A stretch of 64,000 nt of DNA, taken from positions 358,298,001 through 358,362,000 of the forward strand of contig OZ024741.1 in NCBI GenBank assembly GCA_964016885.1. The letters are read 5' to 3'. The DNA comes from Eledone cirrhosa (lineage: Eukaryota). The notes beneath the pieces are model-generated. The model ran no database searches, was not told the origin of the DNA, and was given only the letters and a program-made list of their open reading frames with translations. The stretch's first letter is position 1; the number at the start of each line of letters is the position of its first letter. Shown in pieces: positions 6,494 through 54,194 of this stretch. A program made the translations under genes and the position numbers.

Positions 6494-6676
6494 CAAAGTA
6501 ATTGTGGTAAGGAACCAGATAGACGATAACGCACCAGAGTACTCAATACTTAGGGTAGTAGAGTGGGAAATAGGAAAAAGTATGACCCCGACGGCAGAGC
6601 TCAAGCCGTTTCGACGGCTATTTCTGGACAAAGCCGTCGAAACGGCTTGAGCTCTGCCGTCGGGGTCATACTTTTT

Positions 6677-14330: not shown

Positions 14331-14361
<31 letters not shown>

Positions 14362-14466
14362 GATGTAAATATAATGTATTTTGCAATACACTTTATGCTT
14401 AATTAAAAGCATTTTGAAGACCGTAAGCTATTGTTTTAAAGTAGTGACAAATTCACTCACTTCGAT

Positions 14467-14554
14467 CTCAGCAAACAGGAGGAGATAAGCCGACATGACA
14501 TGTTTCGCTTTTGTTGAAGCTTATCAAGGCCAACTACCCCGCCCGTCTGCTGAG
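14467..14554 (-). ncRNA. Type I hammerhead ribozyme (U3-A8 variant)
   Basis: Reverse complement of 14791-14878. Confidence 0.75.
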
Positions 14555-14790
14555 ATTAATGATGTTATATTCTTATAGAAATCTAGTAAATAATCAGGAG
14601 CTGATTATGCAGAGCGGTTGTTGGTCAGGCAGAAATTAAAAATTAGAATTGTAGCTCTGAAATAGCAATATATATATGGATGTAAATATAATGTATTTTG
14701 CAATACACTTTATGCTTAATTAAAAGCATTTTGAAGACCGTAAGCTCCTGATTATTTACTAGATTTCTATAAGAATATAACATCATTAAT

Positions 14791-14878
14791 CTCAGCAGAC
14801 GGGCGGGGTAGTTGGCCTTGATAAGCTTCAACAAAAGCGAAACATGTCATGTCGGCTTATCTCCTCCTGTTTGCTGAG
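14791..14878 (+). ncRNA. Type I hammerhead ribozyme (U3-A8 variant)
   Basis: ggcc TTGATAA gctt-caacaa-aagc GAAA catgtcatg TC ggct; long distal stem I ctcagcagacggg/cctgtttgctgag; predicted cleavage after C14853. Confidence 0.8.
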
Positions 14879-15107
14879 ATCGAAGTGAGTGAATTTGTCA
14901 CTACTTTAAAACAATAGCTTACGGTCTTCAAAATGCTTTTAATTAAGCATAAAGTGTATTGCAAAATACATTATATTTACATCCATATATATATTGCTAT
15001 TTCAGAGCTACAATTCTAATTTTTAATTTCTGCCTGACCAACAACCGCTCTGCATAATCAGCTCCTGATTATTTACTAGATTTCTATAAGAATATTACAT
15101 CATTAAT

Positions 15108-15195
15108 CTCAGCAGACGGGCGGGGTAGTTGGCCTTGATAAGCTTCAACAAAAGCGAAACATGTCATGTCGGCTTATCTCCTCCTGTTTGCTGAG
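15108..15195 (+). ncRNA. Type I hammerhead ribozyme (U3-A8 variant), next tandem unit
   Basis: Same motif as 14791-14878, +317 bp. Confidence 0.8.
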
Positions 15196-15424
15196 ATCGA
15201 AGTGAGTGAATTTGTCACTACTTTAAAACAATAGCTTACGGTCTTCAAAATGCTTTTAATTAAGCATAAAGTGTATTGCAAAATACATTATATTTACATC
15301 CATATATATATTGCTATTTCAGAGCTACAATTCTAATTTTTAATTTCTGCCTGACCAACAACCGCTCTGCATAATCAGCTCCTGATTATTTACTAGATTT
15401 CTATAAGAATATAACATCATTAAT

Positions 15425-15512
15425 CTCAGCAGACGGGCGGGATAGTTGGCCTTGATAAGCTTCAACAAAAGCGAAACATGTCATGTCGGCTTATCTCCTC
15501 CTGTTTGCTGAG
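15425..15512 (+). ncRNA. Type I hammerhead ribozyme (U3-A8 variant), last tandem unit
   Basis: Same motif as 14791-14878, +634 bp. Confidence 0.8.
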
Positions 15513-15647
15513 ATCGAAGTGAGTGAATTTGTCACTACTTTAAAACAATAGCTTACGGTCTTCAAAATGCTTTTAATTAAGCATAAAGTGTATTGCAAAA
15601 TACATTATATTTACATCCATATATATATTGCTATTTCAGAACTACAA

Positions 15648-15685
<38 letters not shown>

Positions 15686-22830: not shown

Positions 22831-22982
22831 TTGTTATACTTTGGGAGGGTCATGTTGCCAATAAAAACACACGCACCAGTTGCTTTCACTTCAATTTATT
22901 ATAAATTAAATTAATAAATTTAGGAATTTATAAATTTCCGGTTGGTTGGTTGGTTCCACAACCAGACGATTGTTCATATATT

Positions 22983-23025
22983 GTCAAAGTTCTTTCGTCA
23001 CACATTCTGTGACCTCTTCAGTGAC
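22983..23025 (-). ncRNA. Minimal type I hammerhead ribozyme
   Basis: Reverse complement of 23096-23138. Confidence 0.7.
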
Positions 23026-23095
23026 TGGGAATTCTTTTCTTTGTTTTTGTGCCTCTCCTTTGTTCTGTCCTACACCATCTTGAAAAGAATCCCCA

Positions 23096-23138
23096 GTCAC
23101 TGAAGAGGTCACAGAATGTGTGACGAAAGAACTTTGAC
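23096..23138 (+). ncRNA. Minimal type I hammerhead ribozyme
   Basis: gtca CTGAAGA g gtcac-agaatgt-gtgac GAAA gaac TT tgac: canonical core, 5-bp stem II, 4-bp stem I, very short stem III as in PLE hammerheads. Confidence 0.7.
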
Positions 23139-23262
23139 AATATATGAACAATCGTCTGGTTGTGGAACCAACCAACCGGAAATTTATAAATTCCTAAATT
23201 TATAAATTTAATTTATAATAAATTGAAGTTAAAGCAACTGGTGCGTATATATATATATATAT

Positions 23263-23703
23263 ATTAGAATTGGAGCTAGCTCTGAAATAGAAATATATAT
23301 ATGAATGTATATATAATGTATTTTGCAACACACTTTATGCTTAATTATGCTTAATTAAAAGCATTTTGAAGACCGTATGCTATTGTTTTAGAGTAGTGAC
23401 AAACTCACTTACTTTAATCTCAGCAAACAAGGGGAGATAAGCCGACAAGGCCTTGTTTCGCATTTATTGATGCTTATCAAGGCTAACTACTCCCTCCTGT
23501 CTACTGAGAATACTGATGTTATATTCTTATAGAATTCTAGTAAATAATCAGGAACTGATTATACAGAGCGGTTGCCGGTCGGGCAGAAATTAAAAATTAG
23601 ATTAAAGTAAGTGAGTTTGTCACTACTCTAAAACAATAGCACACGGTCTTCAAAATGCTTTTAATTAAGCATAAAGTGTATTTCAAAATACATTATATAT
23701 ACA

Positions 23704-23706
<3 letters not shown>
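23263..23706. mobile_element. Diverged copy of the 317-bp retrozyme-like monomer (minus unit then short plus arm)
   Basis: Clearly homologous to 14361-14746; orientation flips near 23600. Confidence 0.85.
23419..23508 (-). ncRNA. Type I hammerhead ribozyme (U3-A8 variant), covarying homolog
   Basis: rc: agcc TTGATAA gcat-caataa-atgc GAAA caaggccttg TC ggct; compensatory changes in stems II and III relative to the 14.8 kb copies. Confidence 0.8.
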
Positions 23707-23771
<65 letters not shown>

Positions 23772-24467: not shown

Positions 24468-24666
24468 AAAAGAGTCAGGACCCCGACGGCTGAGCTCCGG
24501 CTGTTTCGACAGCTAGATCCGAACAGTTCGGATCTAGCTGTCGAAACGGCCGGAGCTCAGCCGTCGGGGTCCTGAATCTTTTCCCATTACCCACTCTATT
24601 ACCTAAGTATTGAGTACTCTGGTGCGTTATGGTCTACCTGGTATCTTACCACACCCTCTTTGTTAT
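24463..24666. repeat. Foldback cassette in (TA)n carrying hammerhead 3' half
   Basis: 24465-24522 inverted at 24526-24584; gtcGAAAcggc..gccgTCgggg; right arm longer; homolog of 6490-6680. Confidence 0.75.
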
Positions 24667-25250: not shown

Positions 25251-25675
25251 CGTCCTGTGTGTGTGTAACTAATTAAAAATAGAAATAACATAACAACAGA
25301 TATATACAGTTTGTCTCCCCAAAATTGTATACACCATTGCCAGAAATAATAAACAGAACACACTCACTGTTTAATAATAAACACACAATTTCATATCAAA
25401 AACCTTGCAAAACAAATTCATCGCCGTCACGGCATTAGCTTATGCCAAGCTGAAAGGTTATTGAAAGATACTGTTTTATATTTGTTTCGACACACGATTT
25501 CATATAAAACACCTGGCAAAACAAATATATATTTATGTAAGTATTAGGGATATTTAATTTGTTGGAAATTCAACAAATATAAATGTTTATAACTGATTCA
25601 GAGCACTCGACAGTTTTCTGGAGTAAATATTCAATGATATTAAATAAATGGAAACTATATTTATAAAACCATATT

Positions 25676-25737
25676 TATTCTATTATATATATTTCAAGGG
25701 TACCAAAAACTTTGGTACGCTTTCATCAGATAAAATA
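25676..25737 (-). ncRNA. Type I hammerhead ribozyme
   Basis: Reverse complement of 25831-25892 with a change only in the stem II loop. Confidence 0.75.
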
Positions 25738-25830
25738 CAAAGTGTGTTTTATAAATTTTACTATCCAAGGAAAATTCAACTGATAAGGTATGTTTCCTTG
25801 GCTATGTAAAAATTTATAAAACACACTTTG

Positions 25831-25892
25831 TATTTTATCTGATGAAAGCGTACCAAAGTTGTTGGTACCCTTGAAATATATATAATAGAATA
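25831..25892 (+). ncRNA. Type I hammerhead ribozyme
   Basis: tattttat CTGATGA aag c gtaccaa-agttg-ttggtac c ctt GAAA tatata TA atagaata: 8-bp stem I, long stem II, palindromic stem III. Confidence 0.8.
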
Positions 25893-26374
25893 AATATCAT
25901 TTTATAAATATAGTTTCCATTTATTTAATATCATTGTATATATATATATATAGATAAGAATATTTATATTTATATATGTTTGATATAACTATAAATATGT
26001 AGGGTAGTACTAAGTACTAGCTGGTTTTGACTGTATTGACTCTGCACTGTACACCGATTTTCCTTGCTTATAACTTTTTTGCCTGTGTTTTTTTTGCTTG
26101 TGATTTTTTTTGCTTGTGCTTTTTACCTATTACACTTTCAACAAGTGCTGCCTGTAATTGTGTTCTCTCAATATATACATGCTTACACTAACTTCACATA
26201 TATGTATGTATATATACATATAAGTGATATAATTGGAAAATTATGTCAATTATAATTGATAAATGTTGTCCAAAGCACTTCTGTATTTTCTTCATTTCGG
26301 TGAATGATTTCAATAAGTTGTGAGGTAAAAAATTTAATAAAGGAGTAAAATCGATTGAGTGTATTAGAGGCGCG

Positions 26375-35892: not shown

Positions 35893-38800
35893 TGCATTTA
35901 TCTTGCTTTATGTTCATACGAGTTATCACCAAGTCACAACCAGTGACCTCAAGAGACAACAAGGTCCGCCATGTTCAAGAAAGAACATACATATTCACAC
36001 ATGCATCCTTAGTGTTTAGACTTTTGATGTACTTATATTGACAGGATCTTCCTTAGTATATGGGCAGTTCCCATTAGTACTATCTTTTGTATTTCTCCTA
36101 TACGCGGGTTTCCTGGGATTTGCGATAAGTAGTCGTTAGACCCCTTAGGTATCATTCCCAGAGCGCCTACAACCACTGGTATTGTTTTAGTTCTCAATTT
36201 CCACATTTTTCCAATTTCTATCTCCAGGTCCTTATACTTGCTCAATTTTTCAAATGTTTTTATAGATACATTCTTGTCTATTGGAACAGACATATCAATT
36301 AGCAGGCATACCCTCCTTTGAAAGTCCTTCAATATTATATCAGGTCTATTTGCATCTATTTTTCGGTCTGTTTGGATGCTAAAGTTCCACAAGATTGAGA
36401 TGTGATCTTTTTCAAGTATGGGAGGTGGTTGATGCTCCCACCAATTCTTTTGATGGGGCAGGTCAAAATGCTTACACATTATCCAATGTATGTATTGTGC
36501 AGCTCTGTCATGCCTGTTTAGGTATTCGGTTGGAGCTATAGGACTGCACATTGAAATTATATGGTCAATGGTCTCTGGTTGTTTTTTGCATACACGGCAT
36601 AATGGGCTGCACCCATTTTTTATTATGTTGGCTTGGTAATTTTTTGTTGGCAGACACTGATCTTGTGCCGATATAATCAGTCCTTCAGTCTCCGATTTCA
36701 GTCCAGAGGATGCCAACCACTGATGGGTTAAAGTTTTGTCAACATCAGGATTGTTAGCTCGCTCTGGGTATTTTCCATACAGAGGCGTTTCTTGCCATTT
36801 CTTAGCCAGTTTCTGTAGCAGTTCTTTCTTTGCAGTTACTTTTACCTGCTTTGCTTTTTCTGTGTTTTCCATTTCAGCAGTAAATGGGACTTCTGAAATT
36901 TGTAGTCCATTACTGTATCTTTGTGCATCTTTTGTAATGGAATATGATCTTTTGGTGCTTTCGTGTTTCAAAACGAGTTTGATCATCCAATAATGTGATT
37001 CCCTTAGATATGTGGATAATCCAATTGTTGCAGTTTTCAACGCAATGTCTAACTGGATTAACCCACGTCCTCCTTCTTTCCTAGGGAGATATATTCTATC
37101 TATGTCTGCCTTAGGGTGATGCATTCTGTGCATGGTTAAGAATTTTCGGATTTTTGTATCGAGCCTACGGATCTCTGTGCTTGACCAGTTGATGACATTG
37201 TAACTGTAGGTTACTACTGGTATGGCAAGCGTGTTTATGGCATCGATCCTATTCCTTGCATTCAATTCCGTTCTTAAGATTGCTCTGACTCTGCGGTAAC
37301 ATTCCTTCCTTATCCTTTCCCTCATTGTCGAGTGCTTGATTCCGTCTCCTTCACAAAACCTAGATATTTGTAAGTTTTTTCTTGATCAAGCTCTCTTATC
37401 ACGTTCCCCCGATCAAGATTAATGTCTGAACTCTTCAGCAGCTTTCCTCTGGTGAACGTTGCTTTGGCGCATTTATCTAGTCCAAACTCCATTTTAATGT
37501 CATCACTGAACTGCTTCACAGTGGATAATAGCCCTTGCAATTGTTCATCATTTTTTGCAAATAGTTTCAGGTCATCCATGTAGAACAGGTGATTAATGGT
37601 TTTGTCATAGACTCTATATCCATGTTTTGTTTCATTGAGCATTTTACTTAATGGTATAAGTGCGATGCAGAATAAAAGCGGTGATAAAGAGTCACCCTGA
37701 AAAATTCCACAATTAATATTAACTTCTCCAGCTTCCAGTGATTTTGTTTCACTATTCAAAAGGAGTGTCGTTCTCCATGTCTTCATACTGAATGACAAAA
37801 ACCTCCTGACAACGGGGGATATTTTGAAAATCTCTAAACATTTTTCAATCCAACTGTGTGGCAAACTATCGAATGCTTTTTTATAATCTATCCAAGCAAT
37901 CGATAGATTTTTGTGTCTGTTATGACAATCTTCCAGTATCATTTTGTTAACCAGAAGCTGATCCTTACAGCCATATGAGCCTCGTTTACACCCTTTCTGC
38001 TCAATGGGAAATAGGTCATTTGTTATCAGGTGGTCATATGTGTATTCAGTTAGGACTGATGTTAAAATGTTATACATTGTGGTCAAGCAGGTTATCGGTC
38101 TGTAATTTTTGGGATTGTTTGTCTCATCATTCTTCGGTAGCAGGAATGTAATGCCGTTAACTAGCCATGATGGTATCTTTTCTGGCTCCTTAACTATTTC
38201 ATTGTAAAGTTGGGCTAACAGCTCATGAGACTCTGTGAAGGCATTTATCCAAAAGTTTTGTATTTTGTCTTTTCCTGGGGATTTCCATTTGCTGGTTTTT
38301 CTTAGAGCCAAGCGCAACTGTTCAACTGTTATATTTTCCCATGTTTGTTCTTCAAGGTGAGCTGTTTCTTTCATTTGTCTGTCTATCCATGGGGCATGTA
38401 TGTTATGAACTTTTTCTTCGGCCCAGATCTTTTCCCAGAATTCTTGCACTTCCTCCTTGGGTGGTATTGATTTAGCAGTTATTGTTGACTTACCAATTTT
38501 TCTGTAGAAGTTTCTTTGGTTGTTTTTGAACATATTATTGTCCTTATAGAATCTAGATCGTTTTTCAAAGCGCCTTATACGAGCAGCTTTGGCCGACACT
38601 TTTTGCTTGATTGTTTCTATCAGCATGTCTATGTCACATGTTGATCTTATACTGTACTTTTTTTTCAATTTTCTAAGTTTAGTTTGTTTAACATGTTCAC
38701 CTACTTTATAGTTTGTTAAAATTTCTATGTCAGATCGGAGAAGGTTTATTTGGCGATTGATGTTATCTTGCCAAGTAGATTTCTTGTGGGAATTCCTTTG

Positions 38801-40796
38801 TTTTTTCATCTTCACTCCACATAAGTGAGTGGTGACTTTAGCCGATGCATAATAGAGATGATTTAAGTCAGTAATGTTTAGTTTGTTTGTGATGATAATG
38901 TTTTTGAGAATTATGTTAGTCTTGTGTATTATCTTTTGGTTCTGTTTGGAGTTCTGGATCTTAGGGAGGGTGTCTCGTTGCCCCATGTCAGATTCTTTCA
39001 TTTTCATCCATTCGATCATAATTTCATCCTTCAAGTTGGCAAGTTCATTCTCATTCATTTCTTTATCATTTACGATCTCATTATTTTCATTTGGAGTTTC
39101 ATCCTGAGCATGCACTCCCTCCACTTTTTCGCTCCTTTCTTTAATTTGTTCTGTTGCCAGTGATTCCGCCCCAACCCTGGGATTCGAAGTGTTACAGTTT
39201 ACCTCGTTTTCACTGACACATGCTTCATTTTCCCTTCGCTGACTTTGTGCTACTAGCTTGATCTGATCAATTTCTATGTCAGTTAGTAACTTTTTTCTTA
39301 CAATATTTCTTCGTATATTGGCTAGTTTGTTACTGTCTCTGTTTTCGGGATGTTTCTTTTTCCAGTTGATATATGTTTGTTCTGTATTCGATGTATTTGA
39401 TGGGTAGTACATGGCAGTGTAGAAAGCCTCAAGGACTTCTTTATTATCTTCCCTTGACCATTTTTCTCTCTTTTTCTTTGGATTTCTTGGTGGTGAGCAT
39501 GGAGGGCCAACAGTAGGAGTATTCCGGTTATGGGAGGTCTCCAGCTCCGAAGTGATGGGAAGGTTTGAACCATTAGCTGATTTTTCGACCCCAGTCTGGT
39601 TCCTCTCTGAGGGACGCGGCCCTTTTTTACCCGGGTGACGGCCGATCCGGTATGAGATTTTATCATTAGACATTTACTTTATTTTGTCGCGTTTTATCCT
39701 TATCCGCCAAGGGGTAATCATTTCGTGTTACCACTTCTAGAACGAGTGTCAACCAAGACTAGAGGGGTCGTTCTCCCCTAGAGACATGGCTATTCCCCGC
39801 CGGCCGCCATCCCGGTATTTCTTGGTCACGGGGTTTTCTTTTTGTTGTTTTTTTAAAAATTGTTATTATCATGAGTGGTTCCTTAATGTGAGTATTGCGT
39901 GGCTTAAGAATGAAATTATTAATAATTGTCTCCACTCCAGGCACAAGTCCAGCAATCACCCAGTGCATTACAATAATATAATATACTTTTTGTTGTAGTT
40001 GGCTGTTATTGTTGTTGGCTATGTCGGGGGTGGTGCCGGGGCTTTTTATATTGTTGGTGAGGAAGGGGTGAGCCAGCAGTCCCATAATTGTTGATGTAGA
40101 CGTTTGGCCGGTGGCAAGGTCACCAAGTCAATCTATTTATATCTTTTGCTAGCCTCTCTCTTGTCTAGTGATACCGCCACCTTCCCTTTTCTCTCTCAAG
40201 TTAACAGGGGAATAGTGTCGGTAGCATTGAATGAGTGGTGGCGGCGATGATGGATGCGGTGGGGTGGTGGCAGCGGTGGTGTTGTGGTTACTGATATAGT
40301 ATCTATGAGTTTGTGTTCGTATGTTTAATATATATTTTTATTATATTTTGTGTTGACATATTCCCGTAAAATTTGAATTAAACATTTTTTAAAATTTGAG
40401 ACAATAATAGTAGTAATTATTATTATGATGCTGGTGAAATTGCCGTTATCTGGCTGTTATATTTAGTGTGATGGGATAGGTAGTGTATCAAGTTTCTGGT
40501 GTTGGTGAAATTGAAATTGCTGCTATTTGGCTGTTCTATATAGTGTAGACAGAGGGTGTTTTGTTCCATTTATAACCATTTTCTTTTTTTGAATACAAAA
40601 TATATAATACAAAATTGAATATTTGAGCGATACAACAATATAATATGGATCCGAAACTTTATGGGACCTCATTCGGTGCATTTATGCAACATTTGTGCTA
40701 AGAATTGTTCTTTCACAATTGATTTAAATATGTTAAAAATCAAAAACTTACGGGAGCAATTTCGTGACGTTCTACCACCTCGTGCGTCTTCTTCCC
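35893..40796 (-). mobile_element. R4/Dong-like RLE retrotransposon, family 1, apparently full length
   Basis: ORFs 37322-39673 and 36033-37325; bounded by (ATT)n on both sides. Confidence 0.9.
36033..39673 (-). pseudogene. RT + CCHC + restriction-like endonuclease ORF, one frameshift near 37325-37345
   Basis: KSPGKD, NYRPITCL, QGDSLSPLLF, YMDD, CRVC..HIISMC, RHD, RPDIIL..IDMSVP..KLSKY. Confidence 0.93.
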
Positions 40797-40873: not shown

Positions 40874-43800
40874 CCTTGAATCTCAGTCATTGATGTTGGT
40901 TAACTGGAAAGTCCGTTGGATTGAATATCAAGCCACTACCTGCAGCCTCAGATATTCAGGACGTATCGGAGGGTTCTTGCTGTTCCAAGCAAGCATGCCT
41001 TTTGAAGCGTTCCAAAAAGCGTGAAGGGGCCGATTTTCTTTAACCATCCCTGGAAACTTTTGGAGATAGTCCCCAGTGCGCCTATGACAATCGGGATCAC
41101 TTTGACTTCATGGCAGTTCCAAATCCTTTTCACCTCCCACTTTAGGTCCTGGTATCGGTTAATTTTCTCCCTCTCCTTCTCTTGCACTCTCGTGTCGAAC
41201 GGGCAGGCCACATCCACAATCAGGCACGATCTTTTTTCTTTGTCCACAACCACCAGGTCAGGTCTATTGTGTTCCAGTTTTTTGTCCGTCTGTATCCTAA
41301 AATCCCACAGCACCTTCACCTGACTGTTCTCCATCACCGCCTCTGGCCTATGCTCATACCATTTCTCAGAATGTGGTAGATTGTTTACTTTGCACAGGTG
41401 CCAGTGGATCACCCTGCCCATCACATCGTGTCTCCAGCCCTTATAGTGGGTCTGGGCTAGGTGTTTACACTCGGACACAATGTGAGCCACAGTCTCCTCT
41501 CTCTCTCCACAGATCCTGCACAGTGGGCTAGCCTCCTCCTTGTAGATATGGTGCTTCAACCACTTCGTTTTGAGGGCCTGCTCCTGCGCAGCCATTAGCA
41601 TTCCTTCTGTAGCCTTTTTGAGGTCTCCTCTTCTCAACCAGTTCCATGTCTGTGGATCTCTAAATTCAGTTTTCTCAAAGAAGGTACTATGAAGGGATTT
41701 TCCCTTAAGGCTGCTCTTCCTCCTTGATGTTATTTCCTCCTTGGACATCCCCTGGCCTACTGTCCCCTCCTTCAGTACAGTTCTGAGCATTGGCTCCTTA
41801 CTATAGGTCACGTATTTGTATAGGTTGTTTTTCTCCATCCGAACACAGTCCTCTATGCTGATAAGACCTCTTCCACCCTCAGATCTCCTTAGGTAGAGTC
41901 TATCGACATCACTCCTCCTGTGGAACATGTTGTAGATAGTCAATAGCTTCCTAGTCTTCCTATCCATTTCTTTTTGTTCAGCAACATTCCATCTCAGAAT
42001 TCCCGCACTGTACCTAATAATAGACACAGCTCGGGAATTTACTGCGCTTATGGCATTTCTGCTGTTCAGATGTGACTTCAATACGCTCCTTACTCTCCGA
42101 ATGTATTCAGTTCTTAACAATTCCTTCATTTTTTTTGTTCTTTATGCCATCAGCCTCCAGAACGCCCAAATACTTGTATCCTTCCTCAGAGTCAATTTCC
42201 TTTATCATCTCATCTGTTGGTATCTGGATCCCGTTACTTCTGCTCAACCTACCCCTCTTCATCACAATGACTCCACATTTACCAATACCAAACTGCATAC
42301 ATATATCACTGCTGAAAATACGGACAGTGTCAACAAGCACATCCAACTCCTTCTCACTTTTCCCGAAGAGCTTAAGATCGTCCATGAAGAGGAGGTGATT
42401 GATGGTAAGCTCTCCCCTTCCCAACTTGTATCCTGCTCTCACTTTTCGCAGCATAATGGTCAAGGGCATCAGGGCAAGGACAAACAACAGAGGGGACAGG
42501 CTATCTCCCTGGAAGATACCTCTCTTGATCTTCACGCTTCCCAAGGATACTCCAGTTGATGTCAACTCTGTCTCCCAGGACCCCATACTCCTGCCCAGCA
42601 ACTGTCTGATGTTATCTGCCACCCTGAAGACCTCCAGGCTTTTGGTGATCCAGGAATGAGGCACCATGTCAAATGCCTTTCTGTAGTCTATCCATCCCAT
42701 GGCAAGATCAGTGTGTCTCCTCCTGCAATTCCCCATTACCATCTTATCAATAAGCAACTGGTCCTTTGTACCACGTGACTTCTTTCGGCATCCTTTCTGT
42801 TCGTCCGGTAACAAGTTGTTTGTGTGGAGGTGATGGTAGATTTCCTCAGACACAATGCTCGTCAACAGTTTCCACATTACGGACAGACATGTGATAGGTC
42901 TATAGTTGGTAACATCATTACCCTTGATTCGGTCTTTCATTATCAGAACTGTGGTACCTTTTGTCAACCACTCTGGCACCTCACCCGACACCAAGCAGTC
43001 ATTGAACATGGCCGTCAGCTTCGGGTGGAGGGATGTTAAATGTTTAATCCAATACCCCTGCACACCATCTGGGCCTGGTGATTTCCAGTTGGTTAGTTTT
43101 TTGGCTTGCCCCTTAAGAGTTTCAACTGTGATACTCAAATCAGTCTGTTGTTGTGCCTTCTCACCGATCTCCCTCTGTACTGTCTCAATCCACCCTGCCT
43201 GGGCATTGTGTCTAACATCCTGCTCCCATATTCCTCTCCAGAATGTTTTAGCTTGTTCCGCCCCAGGGATCAAGTCGTTGCCTCTTTCTTTCCCCTCAAG
43301 CTGTCCAAACACCATCTTCTGGTTGTTGTCGAACATGCGGTTCTGTTTATACTGACTGACTCTGTTCTCGTATCGACTGATTTTGGCACTCTTTGCTACA
43401 ATGCGTTGCTTCAATTCCTCTATGATAATATTTAGCTTTTTACTCCTAGTTTTGTATTTTATTTCCAGTCTATTTTTAGTGCCTATGCTTTTTAGTGTCC
43501 CATTCAGTAGTGACTCAAGCTTTCCTATGTCATTTCTCATTTCCCCGATTTGCCCACTCAGTCGCTTCTTCCACCACGGCTCTGCTCTTTCTTGTCTGTT
43601 GTTTCCTCTCGCTTTTATACCAAGTAGTTTCCTCACCGTATTTGCTGTTGCTTTGAGGATATTGTTGCACTGGTGAAGACTCCTCGCCTCAAGGTATGGG
43701 ATGACTTTGTTTACCTTAGCTGTTGTTTCTTTTAACTTTTTCCTGTCTACAAATCTTAGGTTCATAGGTCTCCCACTATCATTGTTCAATTCATCTACCA

Positions 43801-45420
43801 CTAGATTTAGGATGTCAACCGAATCTTGTCCTAGCCCGTCAGCATTCATCTCCTCAGTGGCCGTATCTCTGTTCCAGGTATTATTTATCTCAGTATTCAG
43901 ATCATTGTCTGCTTCGGGTGGTTCCTCCGTTCTCAGGACCTCCTCACCTTAATTTCCCACCGGCTCGCTTGTCTGGCATACTACACCCGCCATCTCCAAG
44001 CCATTCTCTCTGCTCAGTTCCTCCAGTTCCAGCTCGCTTATCCACCCATTAGTTCTTATTACCCGAGCCTGCCCGGCCAATTTTTGTTCATCTAATTTAA
44101 ATAAACCAATCTCGTTCCAGATGTTATGCATCCGTCTCCTGTAGCCCCTCTCCTTGGGGTTACTTTTCAGGTAGCATTGCATAACAGTTCTATTCAATTC
44201 TTTCGTCCAGTTGGTTCTGGCCCCTTTCCTTCTTCTTCTTCCTCCAACATCAGCAGTATTTGGTTGACGGTCAGGTTCCTGCTGCTGAGCCAGGGGGCAC
44301 CTGTTGGGTGAGAGTCTGTCACATGACGTTCTAGTCACCATTTCACCGTTATTCGAACTGTTTATGTTCGATATTTAAACACTCTTATCGAGGATTGGCG
44401 AATGTATGTTTACATAGCCATCTGTGGATCCGCCATCCCACTTGGCCCTTGTGTGGCATTATCACCACGCTGTATACGAACACACATAAACAAACAAACA
44501 CACGGGCAGAAAGGGCCCCAAAAATGAATAAGCATAAGTTTCATTGTAATGTAGTATTCGAATGTCTGACTTAGTTTTTGTTTTTTAAGTTTTACTTTTT
44601 CCCCCCTCTTCTCTGTCCGTCCGCCTGCTTCTCTCTTCATTCTTATTTTCTTTACGTTTTTGGGGTTTCTTTTTTTGTTTTTGTTTTTCTCTGTTTGTTT
44701 TTCTCGTTTTTTGCTGTTGTTGCTGTGCTGCTTTGGTTTTGTTGTTTGTTTTTTCTTTTTTCTTTTGAGTCTATCTATATATTTTGATGCCTTCCTCTTT
44801 GTTAGTAGTAGGGATTCTATAATGTGGAAGTAGGGAGAAGCCAGCAGGGAGAAGCGGGAGGCTGGCGGCGCTGGCGATACTGAGACAGTGGTGGTGGTGA
44901 TGTCGGTACCGAGGCAGTGGTGGCGGTGATGCGACCGTATTACTGTAGTGATGGTGCTGTAGCGGTGGCAGCAGCAGTGAAGGAGTCAAGGGGTGGTGGC
45001 GGCGGTGATGGGATAGTGGTGGTAATGATGGCCGTAGTGAGCGGTGGCGGTGAAAGTGAAAATGCTGTTGTGTTTAGTGTACACAGATGATGGGGTGGGT
45101 GGTGTATCTAGTTTCTGGTGTTGGTGAGTTTAGCTGTCCTATATAGTGTAGCCAGAGGAGAGGAGGGGGGGGGGTTCTTCTTCTTCCATTTATAGCCATT
45201 TTTTTGGGGGATATACAGTGTACAATACAAAGTTGAATATTTGAATATTTGAGCCTTATAACAATATATTTTGGGTCCGAATATTTTGGGGCTCAAGCCG
45301 GGTGCTTTACGTAGCATTTGTACTAAGAGTTGTTATTTCACAAATGATTTAAATATCTTAAAAATTCAAAACTTACGGGAGCGATTTCATGACCTCCGTC
45401 ACCTCGTGCGTCTTCTTCCC
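40874..45420 (-). mobile_element. R4/Dong-like RLE retrotransposon, family 2, copy 1
   Basis: Near-identical to 45519-49993; flanked by (ATT)n. Confidence 0.93.
40948..44341 (-). pseudogene. RT-RLE ORF with one nonsense codon (~43950) and a +1 T frameshift (~42130)
   Basis: Three ORF pieces collinear with the intact 1121-aa ORF. Confidence 0.92.
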
Positions 45421-45506
<86 letters not shown>

Positions 45507-45518
45507 GTTATTGTTATT

Positions 45519-48500
45519 CCTTGAATCTCAGTCATTGATGTTGGTTAACTGGAAAGTCCGTTGGATTGAATATCAAGCCACTACCTGCAGCCTCAGATAT
45601 TCAGGACGTATCGGAGGGTTCTTGCTGTTCCAAGCAAGCATGCCTTTTGAAGCGTTCCAAAAAGCGTGAAGGGGCCGATTTTCTTTAACCATCCCTGGAA
45701 ACTTTTGGAGATAGTCCCCAGTGCGCCTATGACAATCGGGATCACTTTGACTTCATGGCAGTTCCAAATCCTTTTCACCTCCCACTTTAGGTCCTGGTAT
45801 CGGTTAATTTTCTCCCTCTCCTTCTCTTGCACTCTCGTGTCGAACGGGCAGGCCACATCCACAATCAGGCACGATCTTTTTTCTTTGTCCACAACCACCA
45901 GGTCAGGTCTATTGTGTTCCAGTTTTTTGTCCGTCTGTATCCTAAAATCCCACAGCACCTTCACCTGATTGTTCTCCATCACCGCCTCTGGCCTATGCTC
46001 ATACCATTTCTCAGAATGTGGTAAATTGTTTACTTTGCACAGGTGCCAGTGGATCACCCTGCCCATCACATCGTGTCTCCAGCCCTTATAGTGGGTCTGG
46101 GCTAGGTGTTTACACTCGGACACAATGTGAGCCACAGTCTCCTCTCTCTCTCCACAGATCCTGCACAGTGGGCTAGCCTCCTCCTTGTAGATATGGTGCT
46201 TCAACCACTTCGTTTTGAGGGCCTGCTCCTGCGCAGCCATTAGCATTCCTTCTGTAGCCTTTTTGAGGTCTCCTCTTCTCAACCAGTTCCATGTCTGTGG
46301 ATCTCTAAATTCAGTTTTCTCAAAGAAGGTACTATGAAGGGATTTTCCCTTAAGGCTGCTCTTCCTCCTTGATGTTATTTCCTCCTTGGACATCCCCTGG
46401 CCTACTGTCCCCTCCTTCAGTACAGTTCTGAGCATTGGCTCCTTACTATAGGTCACGTATTTGTATAGGTTGTTTTTCTCCATCTGAACACAGTCCTCTA
46501 TGCTGATAAGACCTCTTCCACCCTCAGATCTCCTTAGGTAGAGTCTATCGACATCACTCCTCTTGTGGAACATGTTGTAGATAGTCAATAGCTTCCTAGT
46601 CTTCCTATCCATTTCTTTTTGTTCAGCAACATTCCATCTCAGAATTCCCGCACTGTACCTAATAATAGACACAGCTCGGGAATTTACTGCGCTTATGGCA
46701 TTTCTGCTGTTCAGATGTGACTTCAATACGCTCCTTACTCTCCGAATGTATTCAGTTCTTAACAATTCCTTCATTTTTTTGTTCTTTATGCCATCAGCCT
46801 CCAGAACGCCCAAATACTTGTATCCTTCCTCAGAGTCAATTTCCTTTATCATCTCACCTGTTGGTATCTGGATCCCGTTACTTCTGCTCACCCTGCCCCT
46901 CTTCATCACAATGACTCCACATTTACCAATACCAAACTGCATACATATATCACTGCTGAAAATACGGACAGTGTCAACAAGCACATCCAACTCCTTCTCA
47001 CTTTTCCCGAAGAGCTTAAGATCGTCCATAAAGAGGAGGTGATTGATGGTAAGCTCTCCCCTTCCCAACATGTATCCTGCTCTCACTTTTCGCAGCATAA
47101 TGGTCAAGGGCATCAGGGCAAGGACAAACAACAGAGGGGACAGGCTATCTCCCTGGAAGATACCTCTCTTGATCTTCACGCTTCCCAAGGATACTCCAGT
47201 TGATGTCAACTCTGTCTCCCAGGACCCCATACTCCTGCCTAGCAACTGTCTGATGTTATCTGCCACCCTGAAGATCTCCAGGCTTTTGGTGATCCAGGAA
47301 TGAGGCACCATGTCAAATGCCTTTCTGTAGTCTATCCATCCCATGGCAAGATCAGTGTGTCTCCTCATGCAATTCCCCATTACCATCTTATCAATAAGTA
47401 ACTGGTCCTTTGTACCACGTGACTTCTTTCGGCATCCTTTCTGTTCGTCCGGTAACAAGTTGTTTGTGTGGAGGTGGTGGTAGATTTCCTCAGACACAAT
47501 GCTCGTCAACAGTTTCCACATTACGGACAGACATGTGATAGGTCTATAGTTGGTAACATCATTACCCTTGATTCGGTCTTTCATTATCAGAACTGTGGTA
47601 CCTTTTGTCAACCACTCTGGCACCTCACCCGACACCAAGCAGTCATTGAACATGGCCGTCAGCTTCGGGTGGAGGGATGTTAAATGTTTAATCCAATACC
47701 CCTGCACACCATCTGGGCCTGGTGATTTCCAGTTGGTTAGTTTTTTGGCTTGCCCCTTAAGAGTTTCAACTGTGATACTCAAATCAGTTTGTTGTTGTGC
47801 CTGCTCACCGATCTCCCTCTGTACTGTCTCAATCCACCCTGCCTGGGCATTGTGTCTAACATCCTGCTCCCATATTCCTCTCCAGAATGTTTTAGTTTGT
47901 TCCGCCCCAGGGATCAAGTCGTTGCCTCTTTCTTTCCCCTCAAGCTGTCCAAACAGCATCTTCTGGTTGTTGTCGAACATGCGGTTCTGTTTATACTGAC
48001 TGACTCTGTTCTCGTATCGCCTGATTTTTGAACTCTTTGCTACAATGCGTTGCTTCAATTCCTCTATCATAATATTTAGCTTTTTCCTCCTAGTTTTGTA
48101 CTTTATTTCCAGTCTATTTTTAGTCCCTATGTTTTTTAGTGTCCCATTCAGTAGTGACTCAAGCTTTCCTATGTCATTCCTCATTTCCCCGATTTGCCCA
48201 CTCAGTCGCTTCTTCCACCACGGCTCTGCTCTTTCTTGTCTGCTGTTTCCTCTCGCTTTTATACCAAGTAGTTTCCTCACCGTATTTGCTGTTGCTTTCA
48301 GGATATTGTTGCACTGGTGAAGGCTCCTCGCCTCAAGGTATGGGATGACTTTGTTTACCTTAGCTGTTGTTTCTTTTAACTTTTTCCTGTCTACAAATCT
48401 TAGGTTCATAGGTCTCCCCACTAAATTTAGGATGTCAACCGAATCTTGTCCTAGCCCGTCAGCATTCATCTTCTCAGTGGCCGTATCTCTGTTCCAGGTA

Positions 48501-49993
48501 TTATTTATCTCAGTATTCAGATCATTGTCTGCTTCGGGTGGTTCCTCCGTTCTCAGGACCTCTTCACCTTCATTTCCCACTGGCTCGCTTGTCTGGCATA
48601 CTACACCCGCCATCTCCAAGCCATTCTCTCTGCTCAGTTCCTCCAGTTCCAGCTCGCTTATCCACCCATTAGTTCTTATTACCCGAGCCTGCCCGGCCAA
48701 TTTTTGTTCATCTAATTTAAATAAACCAATCTCGTTCCAGATGTTATGCATCCGTCTCCTGTAGCCCCTCTCCTTGGGGTTACTTTTCAGGTAGCATTGC
48801 ATAACAGTTCTATTCAATTCTTTCGTCCAGTTGGTTCTGGCCCCTTTCCTTCTTCTTCCTCCAACATCAGCAGTATTTGGTTGACAGTCAGGTTCCTGCT
48901 GCTGAGCCAGGGGGCACCTGTTGGGTGAGAGTCTGTCACATGACGTTCTAGTCTCCATTTCACCGTTATTCGAACTGTTTATGTTCGATATTTAAACACT
49001 CTTATCGAGGATTGGCGAATGTATAGTTACATAGCCATCTGTGGATCCGCCATCCCACTTGGCCCTTGTGTGGCATTATCACCACGCTGTATACGAACAC
49101 ACATAAACAAACAAACACACAGGCAGAAAGGGCCCCAAAAATGAATAAGCATAAGTTTCATTGTAATGTAGTGTTCGAATGTCTGACTTAGTTTTAGTTT
49201 TTTAAGTTTTACTTTTTCCCCCCTCTTCTTCTCTGTCCGTCCGCCTGCTTCTCTCTTCATTCTTATTTTCTTTACGTTTTTGGGGTTTCTTTTTTTGTTT
49301 TTGTTTTTCTCTGTTTGTTTTTCTCGTTTTTGCTGTTGTTGCTGTGCTGCTTTGGTTTTGTTGTTTGTTTTTTCTTTTTTCTTTTGAGTCTATCTATATA
49401 TTTTGATGTCTTCCTCTTTGTTAGTAGTAGGAATTCTATTATGTGGAAGTAGCAGCCAGCAGGGAGGAGTGGGAGACTGGCGGCGGTAGCGATACTGAGA
49501 CAGTGGTGGTGGTGATGTCGATACCGAGGCAGTGGTGGCGGTGATGTGACCGTATTACTGTAGTGATGGTGCTGTAGCGGTGGCAGTAGTGAAGGAGTCA
49601 AGGGGTGGTGGCGGCGGTGATGGGATAGTGGTGGTAATGATGGCCGTAGTGAGCGGTGGCGGTGAGGGTGAAAATGCCGTTATCTGGCTGTTGTGTTTAG
49701 TGTACACAGATGATGGGGTGGGTGGTGTATCTAGTTTCTGGTGTTGGTGAATTTGGCTGTCCTATATAGTGTAGCCAGAGGAGAGGAGGGGGGGGGGGGT
49801 TCTTCTTCCATTTATAGCCATTTTCTTTTTTGGATATACAGTGTACAATACAAAGTTGAATATTTGGATATTTGAGCCTTATAACAATATATTTTGGGTC
49901 CGAATTTTTTGGGGCTCAAGCCGGGTGCTTTACGTAGCATTTGTACTAAGAGTTGTTATTTCACAAATGATTTAAATATGTTAAAAATTCAAA
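45519..49993 (-). mobile_element. R4/Dong-like retrotransposon, family 2, copy 2
   Basis: Contains the intact ORF; ~1-kb 5' UTR; lacks the first ~55 nt seen in copy 1. Confidence 0.93.
45593..48958 (-). CDS. Intact R4/Dong-like retrotransposon protein (RT, CCHC zinc knuckle, RLE), 1121 aa
   Basis: WTKELN N-terminal motif, KSPGPDG, NYRPITCL, QGDSLSPLLF, FMDD, CRIC..HIVSEC, RHD, RPDLVV..DVACP..EKINRY; no disruptions. Confidence 0.95.
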   Translation of the reverse strand: METRTSCDRLSPNRCPLAQQQEPDCQPNTADVGGRRRKGARTNWTKELNRTVMQCYLKSNPKERGYRRRMHNIWNEIGLFKLDEQKLAGQARVIRTNGWISELELEELSRENGLEMAGVVCQTSEPVGNEGEEVLRTEEPPEADNDLNTEINNTWNRDTATEKMNADGLGQDSVDILNLVGRPMNLRFVDRKKLKETTAKVNKVIPYLEARSLHQCNNILKATANTVRKLLGIKARGNSRQERAEPWWKKRLSGQIGEMRNDIGKLESLLNGTLKNIGTKNRLEIKYKTRRKKLNIMIEELKQRIVAKSSKIRRYENRVSQYKQNRMFDNNQKMLFGQLEGKERGNDLIPGAEQTKTFWRGIWEQDVRHNAQAGWIETVQREIGEQAQQQTDLSITVETLKGQAKKLTNWKSPGPDGVQGYWIKHLTSLHPKLTAMFNDCLVSGEVPEWLTKGTTVLIMKDRIKGNDVTNYRPITCLSVMWKLLTSIVSEEIYHHLHTNNLLPDEQKGCRKKSRGTKDQLLIDKMVMGNCMRRHTDLAMGWIDYRKAFDMVPHSWITKSLEIFRVADNIRQLLGRSMGSWETELTSTGVSLGSVKIKRGIFQGDSLSPLLFVLALMPLTIMLRKVRAGYMLGRGELTINHLLFMDDLKLFGKSEKELDVLVDTVRIFSSDICMQFGIGKCGVIVMKRGRVSRSNGIQIPTGEMIKEIDSEEGYKYLGVLEADGIKNKKMKELLRTEYIRRVRSVLKSHLNSRNAISAVNSRAVSIIRYSAGILRWNVAEQKEMDRKTRKLLTIYNMFHKRSDVDRLYLRRSEGGRGLISIEDCVQMEKNNLYKYVTYSKEPMLRTVLKEGTVGQGMSKEEITSRRKSSLKGKSLHSTFFEKTEFRDPQTWNWLRRGDLKKATEGMLMAAQEQALKTKWLKHHIYKEEASPLCRICGEREETVAHIVSECKHLAQTHYKGWRHDVMGRVIHWHLCKVNNLPHSEKWYEHRPEAVMENNQVKVLWDFRIQTDKKLEHNRPDLVVVDKEKRSCLIVDVACPFDTRVQEKEREKINRYQDLKWEVKRIWNCHEVKVIPIVIGALGTISKSFQGWLKKIGPFTLFGTLQKACLLGTARTLRYVLNI

Positions 49994-50044
49994 ATAATAA
50001 TAATTGTTATTTCACAAATGATTTAAATCATTTGTGAAATAACA

Positions 50045-50113
<69 letters not shown>

Positions 50114-50118
50114 GTTGT

Positions 50119-53100
50119 TCTTTGAGTCTCAGTCATTGATGTTAGTTAACTGGAAAGTTTGTTGAAATGAATATCAAGCCACTACCTGCAGCCTCAGATA
50201 TTCAGAACGGAGGGTTCTTGCTGTTCCCAGCAAGCATGCCTTTTGAAGTGTTACAAAAAGCGGGACGGGGCCAATTTTCTTTAACCATCCCTGGAAACTT
50301 TTTGAGATAGTACCTAGTGCGCCTATGACAATCGGGACCCCTTTGACTTCATGGCAGTTCCAATTCCGTTTTATCTCCCACTTTAAGTCCTGGTATCGGT
50401 TAATTTTCTCCCTCTCCTTCTCTTGCACTCTCGTGTCGAACGGGCAGGCCACATCCACAATCAGGCACGATCTTTTTTCCTTGTCCAAAACCACCAGGTC
50501 AGGTCTATTGTGTTCCAGTTTCTTGTCCGTCTGTATCCTAAAATCCCACAGCACCTTCACCTGATCGTTTTCTATCACCGACTCTGGCTTCTGCTCATAC
50601 CACTTCTCAGAATGTGGTAAATTGTTTACTTTGCATAGGTGCCAGTGGATCACCCTGCCCATCACATCATGTCTCCAGCCTTTATAGTGAGTCTGGGCTA
50701 GGTGTTTACACTCGGATACAATGTGAGCCACAGTCACCTCTCTCTCTCCACAGATCCTGCACAGTGGGCTAGCCTCCTCCTTGTAAATATGGTGTTTCAG
50801 CCACTTCGTTTTGAGAGCCTGCTCTTACGCAGCCATTAGCATTCCTTCTGTAGCCTTTTTGAGGTCTCCTCTTTTCAACCAGTTCCATGTCTGTGGATCT
50901 CTGAATTCAGTTTTCTCAAAGAAGGTACTATGAAGGGATTTTTCATGAAGGCTGCTCTTTCTCCTTGATGTTATTTCCTCCTTGGACACCCCCTGGTCTA
51001 TTGTCCTCTCCTTCAGTACAATTCTGAGCATTGGCTCCTTTCTATCGGTCACGTATTTGTGTAGGTTGTTTTTCTCCATCTGAACACAGTCCTCTATGCT
51101 GATAAGACCTCTTCCACATTCAGATCTCCTTAAGTAGAGTCTATCGACATCACTCCTCTTGTGGAACATGTTGTAGATAGTCAATAGCTTCCTAGTCTTC
51201 CTATCCATTTCTTTTTGTTCAGCAACATTCCATCTCAGAACTCCCGCACTGTACCTAATAATAGACACAACTCGGGAATTTACTGCACTTATGGCATTCC
51301 TACTGTTCAGATGTGACTTTAATACGCTCCTTACTCTCCGAATGTATTCAGATCTTATCAATTCCTTCATTTTTTTGTTCTTGATGTCATCAGCCTCCAG
51401 AACACCCAAATACTTGTATCCTTCTTCATTGTCAATTTCCTTTATCATCTCACCTGTTGGTACCTGGATTCCGTTGCTTCTGCTCAATTTACCCCTCTTC
51501 ATCACAAGGATTCCACACTTACTAATACCAAATTGCATACATATATCATTGCTGAAAATACGGACAATGTCAACAAGCACATCCAACTCCTTCTCACTCT
51601 TCCCGAAGATCGTCCATGAAGAGGAGGTGATTGATGGTAAGCTCTCCCTTTCCCAACTTGTATCCTGCTCTCACTTTTCGCAATATAATGGTCAGGGGCA
51701 TCAGGGCAAGGTCAAACAACAGAGGGGACAGACTATCTCCCTGGAAGATACCTCTCTTGATCTTCACGCCTCCCAAAGATTCTCCAGCCGATGTTAACTC
51801 TGTTTTCCAGGACTTCATAATTTTGCTCAACAACTGTCTGATGTTATCTGCCACCTTGAAGATCTCTAGGCTTTTGGTGATCCAAGAATGTGGCACCATG
51901 TCAAATGCCTTTTTGTAGTCTATCGATTCCACGGCAAGACCAGTGTGTCTCCTCTTGCAATTCCTCATTACAATCTTATCAATAAGTAACTGGTCCTTTG
52001 TACCACGGGACTTCTTTCGGCATCCTTTCTGTTCGTCCGGTAACAAGTGGTTTGTGTGGAGGTGATGGTAGATTTCCCCAGACACAATGCTTGTCAACAG
52101 TTTCCACATTACGGACAGACATGTGATATGTCTATAGTTGGTAACATCATTACCCTTGATTCGGTCTTTCATTACCAGAACTGTGGTACCTTTTGTCAAC
52201 CACTCTGGTACCTCACCTGACATCAAGCAGTCATTTAACATGGTTGTCAGTGGAGGGATGTTATATTATAATCCAATACCCCTGCACACCATCTGGGCCT
52301 GGTGATTTCTAGCTGGTTATTTTTTTGGCCTGCCCCTTAAGAGTTTCAACTGTGATACTCAAATCAGTTTGTTGGTGTGCCTGTTCACTAATCTCCTTTT
52401 GTACTGTCTCAATCCACACTGCCTGGTCATTATGTTTAACATCCTGCTCCCATATTCCTCTCCAGAATGTCTTAGTTTGTTCCACCTCAGGGATCAAGTC
52501 GTTGCCTCTTTCTTTCCCTTCAAGCTGTCCAAACAGCATCTTCTGGTTGTTGTCAAACATGCGGTTCTGTCTATACTGACTCTGCTCTCGTATCGCCTAA
52601 TTTTTGCACTCTTTGCTACAATGCGTTGCTTCAGTTCCTCTATGATAATATTTAGCTTTTTCCTCCTAGTTTTGTACTTTATTTCCAGTCTATTTTTAGT
52701 GTCTAAGTTTTTTAGTGTCCCATTCAGTAGGGACTCAAGCTTTCCAATGTCATTTCTCATTTCCCTGATTTGACCATTCAGTCGTTTCTTCCACCAAGGT
52801 TCTGATCTTTCTTGTTTGTTGTTTCCTCTCGTTTTTATACCAAGTAATTTCCTCACCGCATTTGCTGTTGCTTTCAGGATATTGTTGCACTGGTGAAGGC
52901 TCCTCGCCTCAAGGTATGGGATGACTTTGTTTACCTTAGCTGTTGTTTCTTTTAACTTTTTCCTGTCTACAAATCTTAGCTTCATAGGTTTCCCACTATC
53001 ATTGTTCATTTCATCTACCACTAAGTTTAGGATATCAACCAAATCTTGTCTTAGCCCGTCAGCATTCATTTCCTCAATGGCCGTATCTGTGTTCCAGGTA

Positions 53101-53720
53101 TTATTTATTTCAGCATTCAGATCATTGTCTGCTTCGGATGCTTCCTCCGTTCTCTCAACCTCTTCACCTTCATTTCCCACTGGCTCGTTTGCCTGGAATA
53201 CTCCACTCTCCATTTCCAACCCAATCTCTCTGCTCAGTTCCTCCAGTTCCAGCTCGCTTATCCACCCATTAGTTCTTATTACCCGAGCCTGCCCGGCCAA
53301 TTTTTGTTCATCTAATTTAAATAGACCAATCTTGTTCCAGATGTTATGCGTTCGTTTCCTATAGCCTTTTTCCTTGGGGTTACTCTTCAGGTAACATTGC
53401 ATAACAGTTCTATTCAATTATTTCGTCCAGTTGGTTCTGGTCCTTCTTCTTCCTCCGACACCAGCAGTATTTGGTTGACAGCCGGGTCCCTGCTGCTGAG
53501 CCAGGGAGCACCTGCTGGGTGAGAGTCTGTCACATGACATTCCAGTCTCCACTTCACCGTTATTCGAACTGTTTAGGTTCGACATTGAAACACTCTTATC
53601 GAGGATTGGTGAATGTATGGTTACATAACCACCGGTGATTTGATCACCCTCGGTGATTTTAGCGTGGCACTATCACGCTGTAGACGAACATAAATAAACA
53701 AACAAACAAACAGGCAGAAA
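50119..53720 (-). pseudogene. R4/Dong-like retrotransposon, family 2, older copy 3
   Basis: Fragmented ORFs 50174-53417 collinear with the intact copy; multiple indels and stops. Confidence 0.92.
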
Positions 53721-53721
53721 G

Positions 53722-54190
53722 AGATAGTATGGCGGACACGTTTGAAAGGGCTGAAGACGAGCACTTACCTCTTCGGTGATGCCCTGATTAACTTTTTCAA
53801 ATTTCATTTGAAAAGGAAAATCAGGGTAGAGAGGGAAGTGCTCTCTTCCCAGCATTTTGTTGAAAGATGGGTGAGAGAGGCAAGAATGGCCCGAGTATGT
53901 GTCTGTAAATTAAAGGTGGAAAACTGGGAGAGGGCACTTGCCCTGGTGGTCAGGGTCACTGTGGCTTTTTAATGGGCTTTCTCCACGAATGTCCCTCAGA
54001 AGTCTCCCCCCTATTGGGGAATTTTTTCATTGTTCTATTATTACATCCTCTGTTTCTTGTTTTTTTTACACGTAGAAATGCCCTTTTGTACCGTCCTGTA
54101 TTGTCCTGTACTGTCCTTAATGTCTCACTCTGTGTAAACCCTTGTGGTTAATAAAGAAAGCATTATTATTATTATTTATCATTATTGTTA
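53722..54190 (+). mobile_element. Tx1/L1-like LINE 3' end
   Basis: WRTRLKGLKT..LINFFKFHLKRKIRVERE..FVERW resembles Tx1 ORF2 C-termini; AATAAA then (ATT)n. Confidence 0.6.
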
Positions 54191-54194
54191 TTAC

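Follow-up and report, generated by a model that had tools for sequence, protein, structure and literature searches.

A probable non-autonomous U3-A8 hammerhead retrozyme family in Eledone cirrhosa, likely dispersed by a Neptune-type Penelope protein

A 64,000-nt stretch of the Eledone cirrhosa genome (contig OZ024741.1, positions 358,298,001 to 358,362,000; hereafter the window) carries two related insertions, near 14.8 kb and 23 kb, whose hammerhead-like motifs differ in their stems and agree in their core. This raises the question of whether the fold is maintained by selection and, if so, what kind of element carries it and how that element moves. Both insertions belong to one family, probably a non-autonomous retrozyme, whose cleavage is predicted to be most efficient when tandem units form a double hammerhead; a Neptune-type Penelope protein likely copies it into TA repeats. 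Comparable elements are on record: U3-A8 cores, a palindromic stem III and the derivation of retrozymes from Penelope elements have all been published.

Two window insertions and their hammerheads

The 23-kb insertion occupies 23264-23716, running slightly past the end at 23706 first assigned to it. Its main arm (23264..23601, minus strand) is just over one unit long, contains one hammerhead and has a private 10-nt duplication and a 4-nt insertion. This arm ends at the distal of two 3' sites, with a tail of about 26 nt, and abuts a TA repeat. An inverted, 5'-truncated arm (23599..23716, plus strand) ends at the proximal 3' site without the tail, again abutting a TA repeat.

The ribozyme copy lies on the minus strand at 23418..23509 and is a type I hammerhead with an extended stem I, consisting of a proximal stem, an internal loop and a long distal helix. 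The core U3-U4-G5-A6-U7-A8-A9 (23474..23480, minus) has U3 at 23480 and A8 at 23475, replacing the usual C3-G8 pair. Stem II (23460..23473, minus) comprises four base pairs, GCAT/ATGC, and a 6-nt loop, and the GAAA box, as read from the sequence, follows at 23459-23456 (minus). Stem III (23445..23456, minus) is a perfect 12-nt palindrome that could form 4 bp and a tetraloop in a monomer or 12 bp between two units. By the hammerhead consensus, cleavage is predicted after C17 of the GUC triplet, at 23443..23444 (minus; C17 = 23444). The complementary 3-8 pair is accompanied by G10.1-C11.1, A15.1-U16.1 and an NUH triplet, and the three helices, with helix I open, are supported by covariation, as expected of a type I hammerhead. 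The minus strand here folds with z = -6.9, none of 200 shuffles being equally stable. Its Rfam HH9 match is weak (19.5 bits, E 0.017); neither this nor another window match at 31-32 bits reaches the hammerhead cut-off of 52 bits.

The second insertion (14351..15654, mixed orientation) belongs to the youngest subfamily. It consists of an inverted minus-strand arm (14351-14746) and about 2.9 tandem 317-nt plus-strand units, with four hammerheads whose U3 residues lie at 14527 (minus), 14818, 15135 and 15452 (all plus). Its copies have GCTT/AAGC in stem II and an 11-nt stem III with a central T. Neither window insertion contains a stop-to-stop frame of at least 120 aa. The differences listed in the earlier note are as it gave them: on the minus strand, GCTT/AAGC is replaced by GCAT/ATGC at 23 kb, the 11-mer with central T by the perfect 12-nt palindrome, distal stem I pairing is kept (23509-23418), and TTGATAA, GAAA and GTC are the same in both copies.

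That note had taken the 23-kb copy to be a diverged homologue supplying covariation. The units are 86-90% identical, their comparison yields just two double changes, and 14 unchanged core letters are expected by chance at that identity with a probability of 0.12-0.23. This single pairwise comparison is weak evidence, so we analysed the family genome-wide, and it is the whole family that provides the covariation. The 43-nt ribozyme of the 23-kb copy has 125 exact occurrences in the genome, which rules out a lone decayed or diverged homologue; the 14.8-kb type has 473. Best relatives are 98-99% identical to the 23-kb ribozyme and 100% identical to that at 14.8 kb.

Covariation, core constancy and the succession of subfamilies

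The family is a non-coding repeat of about 318 nt (units 316-324 nt, GC 33-35%). A pattern for the U3-A8 core with a long stem III has 4,809 matches in the 3.0-Gb genome and 17 in the reversed control, a few of the 100 listed matches belonging to other families. A pattern anchored outside the core, leaving the core free, has 3,875 matches against 4 in the control. Listed places on contig C1 between 5 and 82 Mb gave 76 insertion loci, of which 75 contain a whole ribozyme. Because the search patterns need part of the ribozyme intact, copies whose core or anchors are preserved are over-represented in this sample. At least two same-strand ribozymes are present in 22 of the 76. The alignment comprises 69 of the 75 loci and the two window copies, after exclusion of four that were too short, one with stem I deletions and one duplicate reference. 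Elsewhere in the genome, a long mixed-orientation cluster (G000:C2:207687138-207703092) carries the youngest ribozyme type at spacings of about 304, 316 and 620 nt.

Covariation was measured by pair counts against slid-partner and shuffled controls. Among 69 distinct copies, 95.4% of stem cells are paired and the covariation score is 0.263, compared with at most 0.096 for slid partners. Double-change cells number 171, against 6-19 for slid partners; the copies are related, and these cells are not counts of independent events. Double changes fall in 9 of 30 pairs, and by this count taken on its own the family does not stand out from the shuffles (150 of 500). Compensatory changes are present in all three stems, often via G-U intermediates, and per-locus pair tables reveal Watson-Crick swaps at I.1, II.2, II.3, II.4, III.4 and III.5. 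Across the 75 loci, I.1 is U-A in 44, C-G in 29 and U-G in one; II.2 is C-G in 49 and U-A in 23; II.3 is A-U in 53, U-A in 19 and G-U in two; and II.4 is U-A in 44, C-G in 28 and U-G in one. Among the 56 twelve-mers, III.5 is A-U in 31, G-C in 20, G-U in three and mismatched in two, and III.4 is a C-C or U-C mismatch in nine.

The core behaves differently from the adjacent positions. Of the 13 core columns one has recurrent variants, compared with 13 of 24 stem or loop columns next to the core (Fisher p = 0.011), and no core column has a clear lineage substitution. The sole recurrent core variant is A9 to T in three rows, two of them from loci where a sister copy retains the A. The 3-8 pair is U-A in 71 of 75 loci, a near-invariance that leaves no room for covariation within the family; a search for a C3-G8 form, using a pattern that omits the GCTT subfamilies, gave no matches. 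Recurrent G-U types outnumber A-C types seven to one (p = 0.07), the single A-C type falling in a column pair misregistered for 11-mers, and rare G-U and A-C cells are unbiased (16 to 15). The G-U bias and the constant core point to selection on the RNA of the hammerhead strand, which would act on source elements. The earlier proposal of selection on the ribozyme fold is supported at the level of the family. We are highly confident that the fold is real and under selection.

Private changes in the C1 sample appear concentrated at A9 and G12, on either side of stem II. In some cases they lengthen stem II by one pair, possibly reflecting hairpin-linked mutation.

A maximum-likelihood tree was built without the core, stem II, stem III or proximal stem I and rooted at its midpoint. 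It takes the form of a ladder of subfamilies (starred branches, 15 of 72). The oldest are GTAC/GCAC types with an AGCT-centred palindrome, followed by a G-U stage at III.5, a GGCC-centred palindrome and an extra-A stage, in which an additional A separates C11.1 from G12. Next come the 23-kb subfamily, GCTT, the 11-mers and finally the 14.8-kb type. Terminal branches shorten along the ladder, and G-U intermediates sit between Watson-Crick states. With this root the 14.8-kb type is nested within older types; most likely, therefore, the 23-kb type is the older and stem III changed from a 12-mer to an 11-mer. The extra-A variant has 243 genome matches; the best tree places it on the trunk, which requires one gain and one loss, and its monophyly is not rejected (AU p = 0.07). 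Our literature search found no paper on an insertion between 11.1 and G12 in the text available, and supplementary files may show such variants.

Stem III in monomers and in tandem units

Natural U3-A8 cores with a palindromic stem III suited to dimers were described by Perreault et al. 2011 (PMC3088659, Fig. S8 legend), and about 1,300 U3-A8 motifs in Schistosoma Penelope elements (Cercyon PLE) were reported together with a dimer model (PMC4209133). The present family shares with these hammerheads the compensatory U3-A8 core, thousands of copies, a Penelope link, and a palindromic stem III and loop III of the sort proposed to permit dimers (PMC3088659, PMC4209133). Unlike them, it has an extended canonical architecture and no attached ORF. 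As described in PMC4209133, the PLE minimal hammerhead has an absent or very short helix III, a helix II of 7-8 bp, an extra base after A9 and a short helix I, and is further recognised by a palindromic 15.2-16.2 and loop 3. The family shares this last feature and none of the others: helix III is 4 bp with a loop, helix II is 4 bp, no extra base follows A9 and helix I is long. The earlier note had seen in the palindrome a fit to dimeric cleavage as in PLE minimal hammerheads; the likeness to that motif is not supported, and the dimeric part draws its support from sequence and modelling only.

Several properties of the palindrome bear on dimerisation. III.5 covaries although in a monomer it would close a 2-nt loop (56 twelve-mers), and all 15 of the 11-mers have G-C at this position, enclosing a central base that is T, A or G. 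Palindromes persist at lengths of 10, 11, 12 and 13, the odd lengths having a free central base, and a perfect 10-mer is found in an older branch (L228). In ViennaRNA, monomer models are less stable than the free ensemble by 1.5-9.3 kcal/mol. Of 11 natural tandem pairs, 10 favour the double hammerhead over two monomers, by 5.9-19.3 kcal/mol, and the remaining pair has no dimer advantage (a difference of 0.1 kcal/mol, given as -0.1). For the two tandem pairs of the 23-kb subfamily, the double hammerhead and the free ensemble differ by no more than about 1 kcal/mol. Tertiary contacts, whether in the core or between loops I and II, are not represented in ViennaRNA, so the dimer modelling is support and not proof. 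A predicted 'off' fold of the monomer was discarded as evidence by itself, since unrelated motifs behave alike in ViennaRNA.

The same retrozyme could instead be an ordinary monomeric extended hammerhead with an inherited palindrome, its inner covariation reflecting tetraloop preferences. This would suit the 4-bp stem III of most subfamilies, the extended helix I and the conserved 6-nt loop II, and invertebrate retrozyme ribozymes with a stem III of about 2 bp are described as cleaving efficiently alone (PMC7229834). The blindness of ViennaRNA to core and loop contacts also favours it, as does the 15.2-16.2 pair, which is predicted at p ≤ 0.01 in all five other motifs printed. Against it, III.5 passes from A-U through G-U to G-C and III.6 is G-C in 51 of 56 twelve-mers; palindromes recur at lengths 10-13 with a free central base when odd; and the modelled dimer has by far the greater stability. 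We consider a purely monomeric hammerhead unlikely, and judge dimer-favoured cleavage in tandem transcripts, as suggested by sequence and modelling, to be moderately likely. The 23-kb copy has one ribozyme and hence is unable to form a dimer in cis. The single succession of subfamilies makes the family a natural experiment in stepwise compensatory ribozyme evolution, in which one of the changing pairs is meaningful mainly in a dimer.

The model also predicts a competing helix in the monomer, in which the 5' half of the palindrome pairs with a stem I strand and U3-U4-G5 (90.3% of cells paired). The natural 12-mer ranks 1-4 among 256 palindromes for the locking pair in seven of seven informative copies (eight were tested, one of which fell into another fold); the ranking is weaker in 11-mers (14-94 of 256) and in the 10-mer outgroup (12 of 64). 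Along the lineage the locking pair 2.1:III.5 goes from U-A through U-G to C-G, with no C-A among 74 loci. One tentative reading, which we regard as somewhat doubtful, is that the palindrome is a selected multimer-sensing switch: the core of a lone unit or circle would be locked, and tandem units would switch both cores on. This reading is post hoc and draws on few independent events. Were it true, the dated ladder with its extra-A stage would amount to a natural fitness series for asking if retrozymes owe their success to cleavage. The literature available yielded no paper describing a core-locking palindrome, and supplementary files may show such variants. Exchange of stem III between tandem units is also described for avocado sunblotch viroid and the double hammerheads of newt and axolotl satellites (PMC4209133, PMC7229834). 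Their stem III is given as too weak alone, whereas that of the family could form and is predicted to face the competing monomer helix.

Insertion layout and a probable link to Penelope elements

Insertions of the family have two fixed 3' ends, one 141 nt and the other about 166 nt downstream of the cleavage site. Head-to-head inversion is found in 51 of 76 loci, and 39 of these 51 have one end at each 3' site, hence the tail at one end only, which is also the layout of the 23-kb insertion. Outer ends coincide with the two 3' sites in 114 of 126 cases, and 82 of these 114 are flanked by TA repeats. Both window insertions fit this layout in their TA flanks, inversion and one-end tail. Tail, inversion and microsatellite targeting are features given for Penelope elements (PMC8557442), and in the anole element PAc the tail marks two internal starts of reverse transcription (PMC11167929). 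The TA-repeat flanks, inverted 5'-truncated copy and one-end tail therefore constitute a Penelope signature.

A DNA-level satellite or MITE-like repeat would also have inverted ends, its hairpins being merely ribozyme-like, and the sub-threshold Rfam scores could be read that way. The inverted arms, however, are variably truncated, head-to-head and end at two different sites, in contrast to fixed terminal repeats, and the family has every core residue as well as three stems that covary; this explanation is largely refuted and has very little probability left. A retrozyme moved by a Penelope-type protein is very likely.

The cleavage site is read through in all 76 loci, which were chosen for holding a ribozyme, and 2 of 132 5' ends lie near it. 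Read-through would imply a circular or an uncut multimeric template. In the mechanism we propose, tandem arrays would be transcribed, and neighbouring units would swap stem III halves and excise unit-length RNA. This RNA would be ligated into a circle, or an uncut multimer would be used instead. A Penelope protein would then nick TA DNA, and reverse transcription would begin at two internal sites and run through one or more units, giving arrays, 5' inversion and a tail at one end.

Cleavage may conversely be dispensable, with the fold kept for protein binding, RNA stability or hairpin-templated copying during reverse transcription, and with uncut multimers as templates. The extra-A lineage was amplified, 5' ends are not piled up at the cleavage site and III.6 has one private double change, all of which agree with such a role. 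So does published work in which ribozyme mutants of an anole PLE still inserted in vitro (PMC11167929); in addition, eight of nine Xenopus retrozyme dimers are reported without cleavage (bioRxiv 10.64898/2026.07.22.740005). Three observations speak against this: the unpaired core columns remain constant as the stems beside them change (p = 0.011); on one strand G-U is preferred to A-C, a bias that templated correction of DNA would not produce; and the best tree has the extra A lost again. Dispensable cleavage is accordingly improbable in our view. Whether mobility depends on hammerhead cleavage can be tested directly with the extra-A stage and the predicted monomer lock.

Metazoan non-LTR retrozymes (Cervera and de la Pena 2020, PMC7229834) are close counterparts. 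Like them, the family has a non-coding, low-GC unit within the range of 170-400 nt, one type I hammerhead per unit, arrangements from monomers to multimers and Penelope elements in the same genome. It differs in its U3-A8 core and in a palindromic stem III of 10-13 nt, where 1-2 bp is described. Expression and circles are described for those retrozymes, whereas this family is known from the genome. In the retrozyme literature available we found no account of insertions that are dispersed, inverted and furnished with a Penelope tail. Retrozymes are presented as Penelope derivatives by Li et al. (bioRxiv 10.64898/2026.07.22.740005), and the tail and inversion signature is genomic evidence for this proposed link.

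With Neptune PLEs (PMC8557442) and PAc (PMC11167929) the family shares microsatellite targeting, an inverted 5'-truncated copy, partial tandems, an optional tail at one end and 3' ends downstream of the ribozyme site. In contrast to these it has no RT or endonuclease, and among the loci examined no sequence match links it to a driver. Its tail of about 26 nt compares with 30-40 nt as reported in those sources and 66 nt in the commonest Neptune-type family of this genome. Frames encoding RT and GIY-YIG domains with a CxxxxCxxC linker, accompanied by U3-A8 hammerheads, do occur in the genome, and from the linker description in PMC8557442 we class them as Neptune-type. One is a 938-aa frame between two U3-A8 hammerheads (L141; G000:C1:145870000-145877000). 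It belongs with L202-L230 to a very abundant family whose U3-A8 hammerhead has a palindromic stem III of 6 nt. The two 3' ends of this family lie about 78 and 144 nt past the site and define the 66-nt tail. U3-A8 patterns with a short stem III have 21,508 matches against 277 in the control, some of the listed matches being of the 14.8-kb type.

The GIY-YIG loci examined were 50 of 150 listed matches, from 10,597 candidates. At the best 30, pieces of the family were found solely as apparent neighbouring insertions (L092) or TA-rich matches, and none of 20 long-frame loci shared sequence with it. No RT and GIY-YIG ORF between pseudo-LTRs is attached to the family. An nhmmer search of 15 loci and two stretches of the window recovered just one other short U3-A8 family, L131, weakly similar to the ribozyme region analysed here (E 5e-4). 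L131, L227, L139, L140 and L201 represent further non-identical U3-A8 hammerhead families with an 8-nt, mostly palindromic stem III. In another Neptune-type family (L147, L159), both examined copies have A13 changed to C in the GAAA box, and another listed copy has the box intact.

The window holds further elements. Four tandem copies of about 4.6 kb at 41-55 kb, bounded by TTA repeats, include one unbroken 1,132-aa frame (RVT_1, zf-RVT); their RT has no GIY-YIG match and was set aside as unrelated to the family. RT-encoding frames of non-LTR retrotransposons span 36033-39673 and 40948-55443 (minus). Rfam microRNA and other window matches are TA-repeat or inverted-repeat artefacts under the cut-off. 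At 2599-2686, 6577-6674 and 24470-24580, short and perfect inverted repeats adjoin TA or TG repeats; they gave weak matches to microRNA families and are probably tiny inverted insertions of other elements. A different inverted insertion at 22858-23260 adjoins the 23-kb insertion and contains two hammerhead-like motifs of the canonical C3-G8 type (C3 at 23021, minus, and 23100, plus), in which stem II is preceded by a bulged base and stem III is very short; its family is also found in L100 and L132. An inverted pair of C3-G8 hammerhead-like motifs at 25660-25900 (25729, minus; 25839, plus) has an AT-only palindromic stem III, with relatives in L123, L125, L126, L137 and L152.
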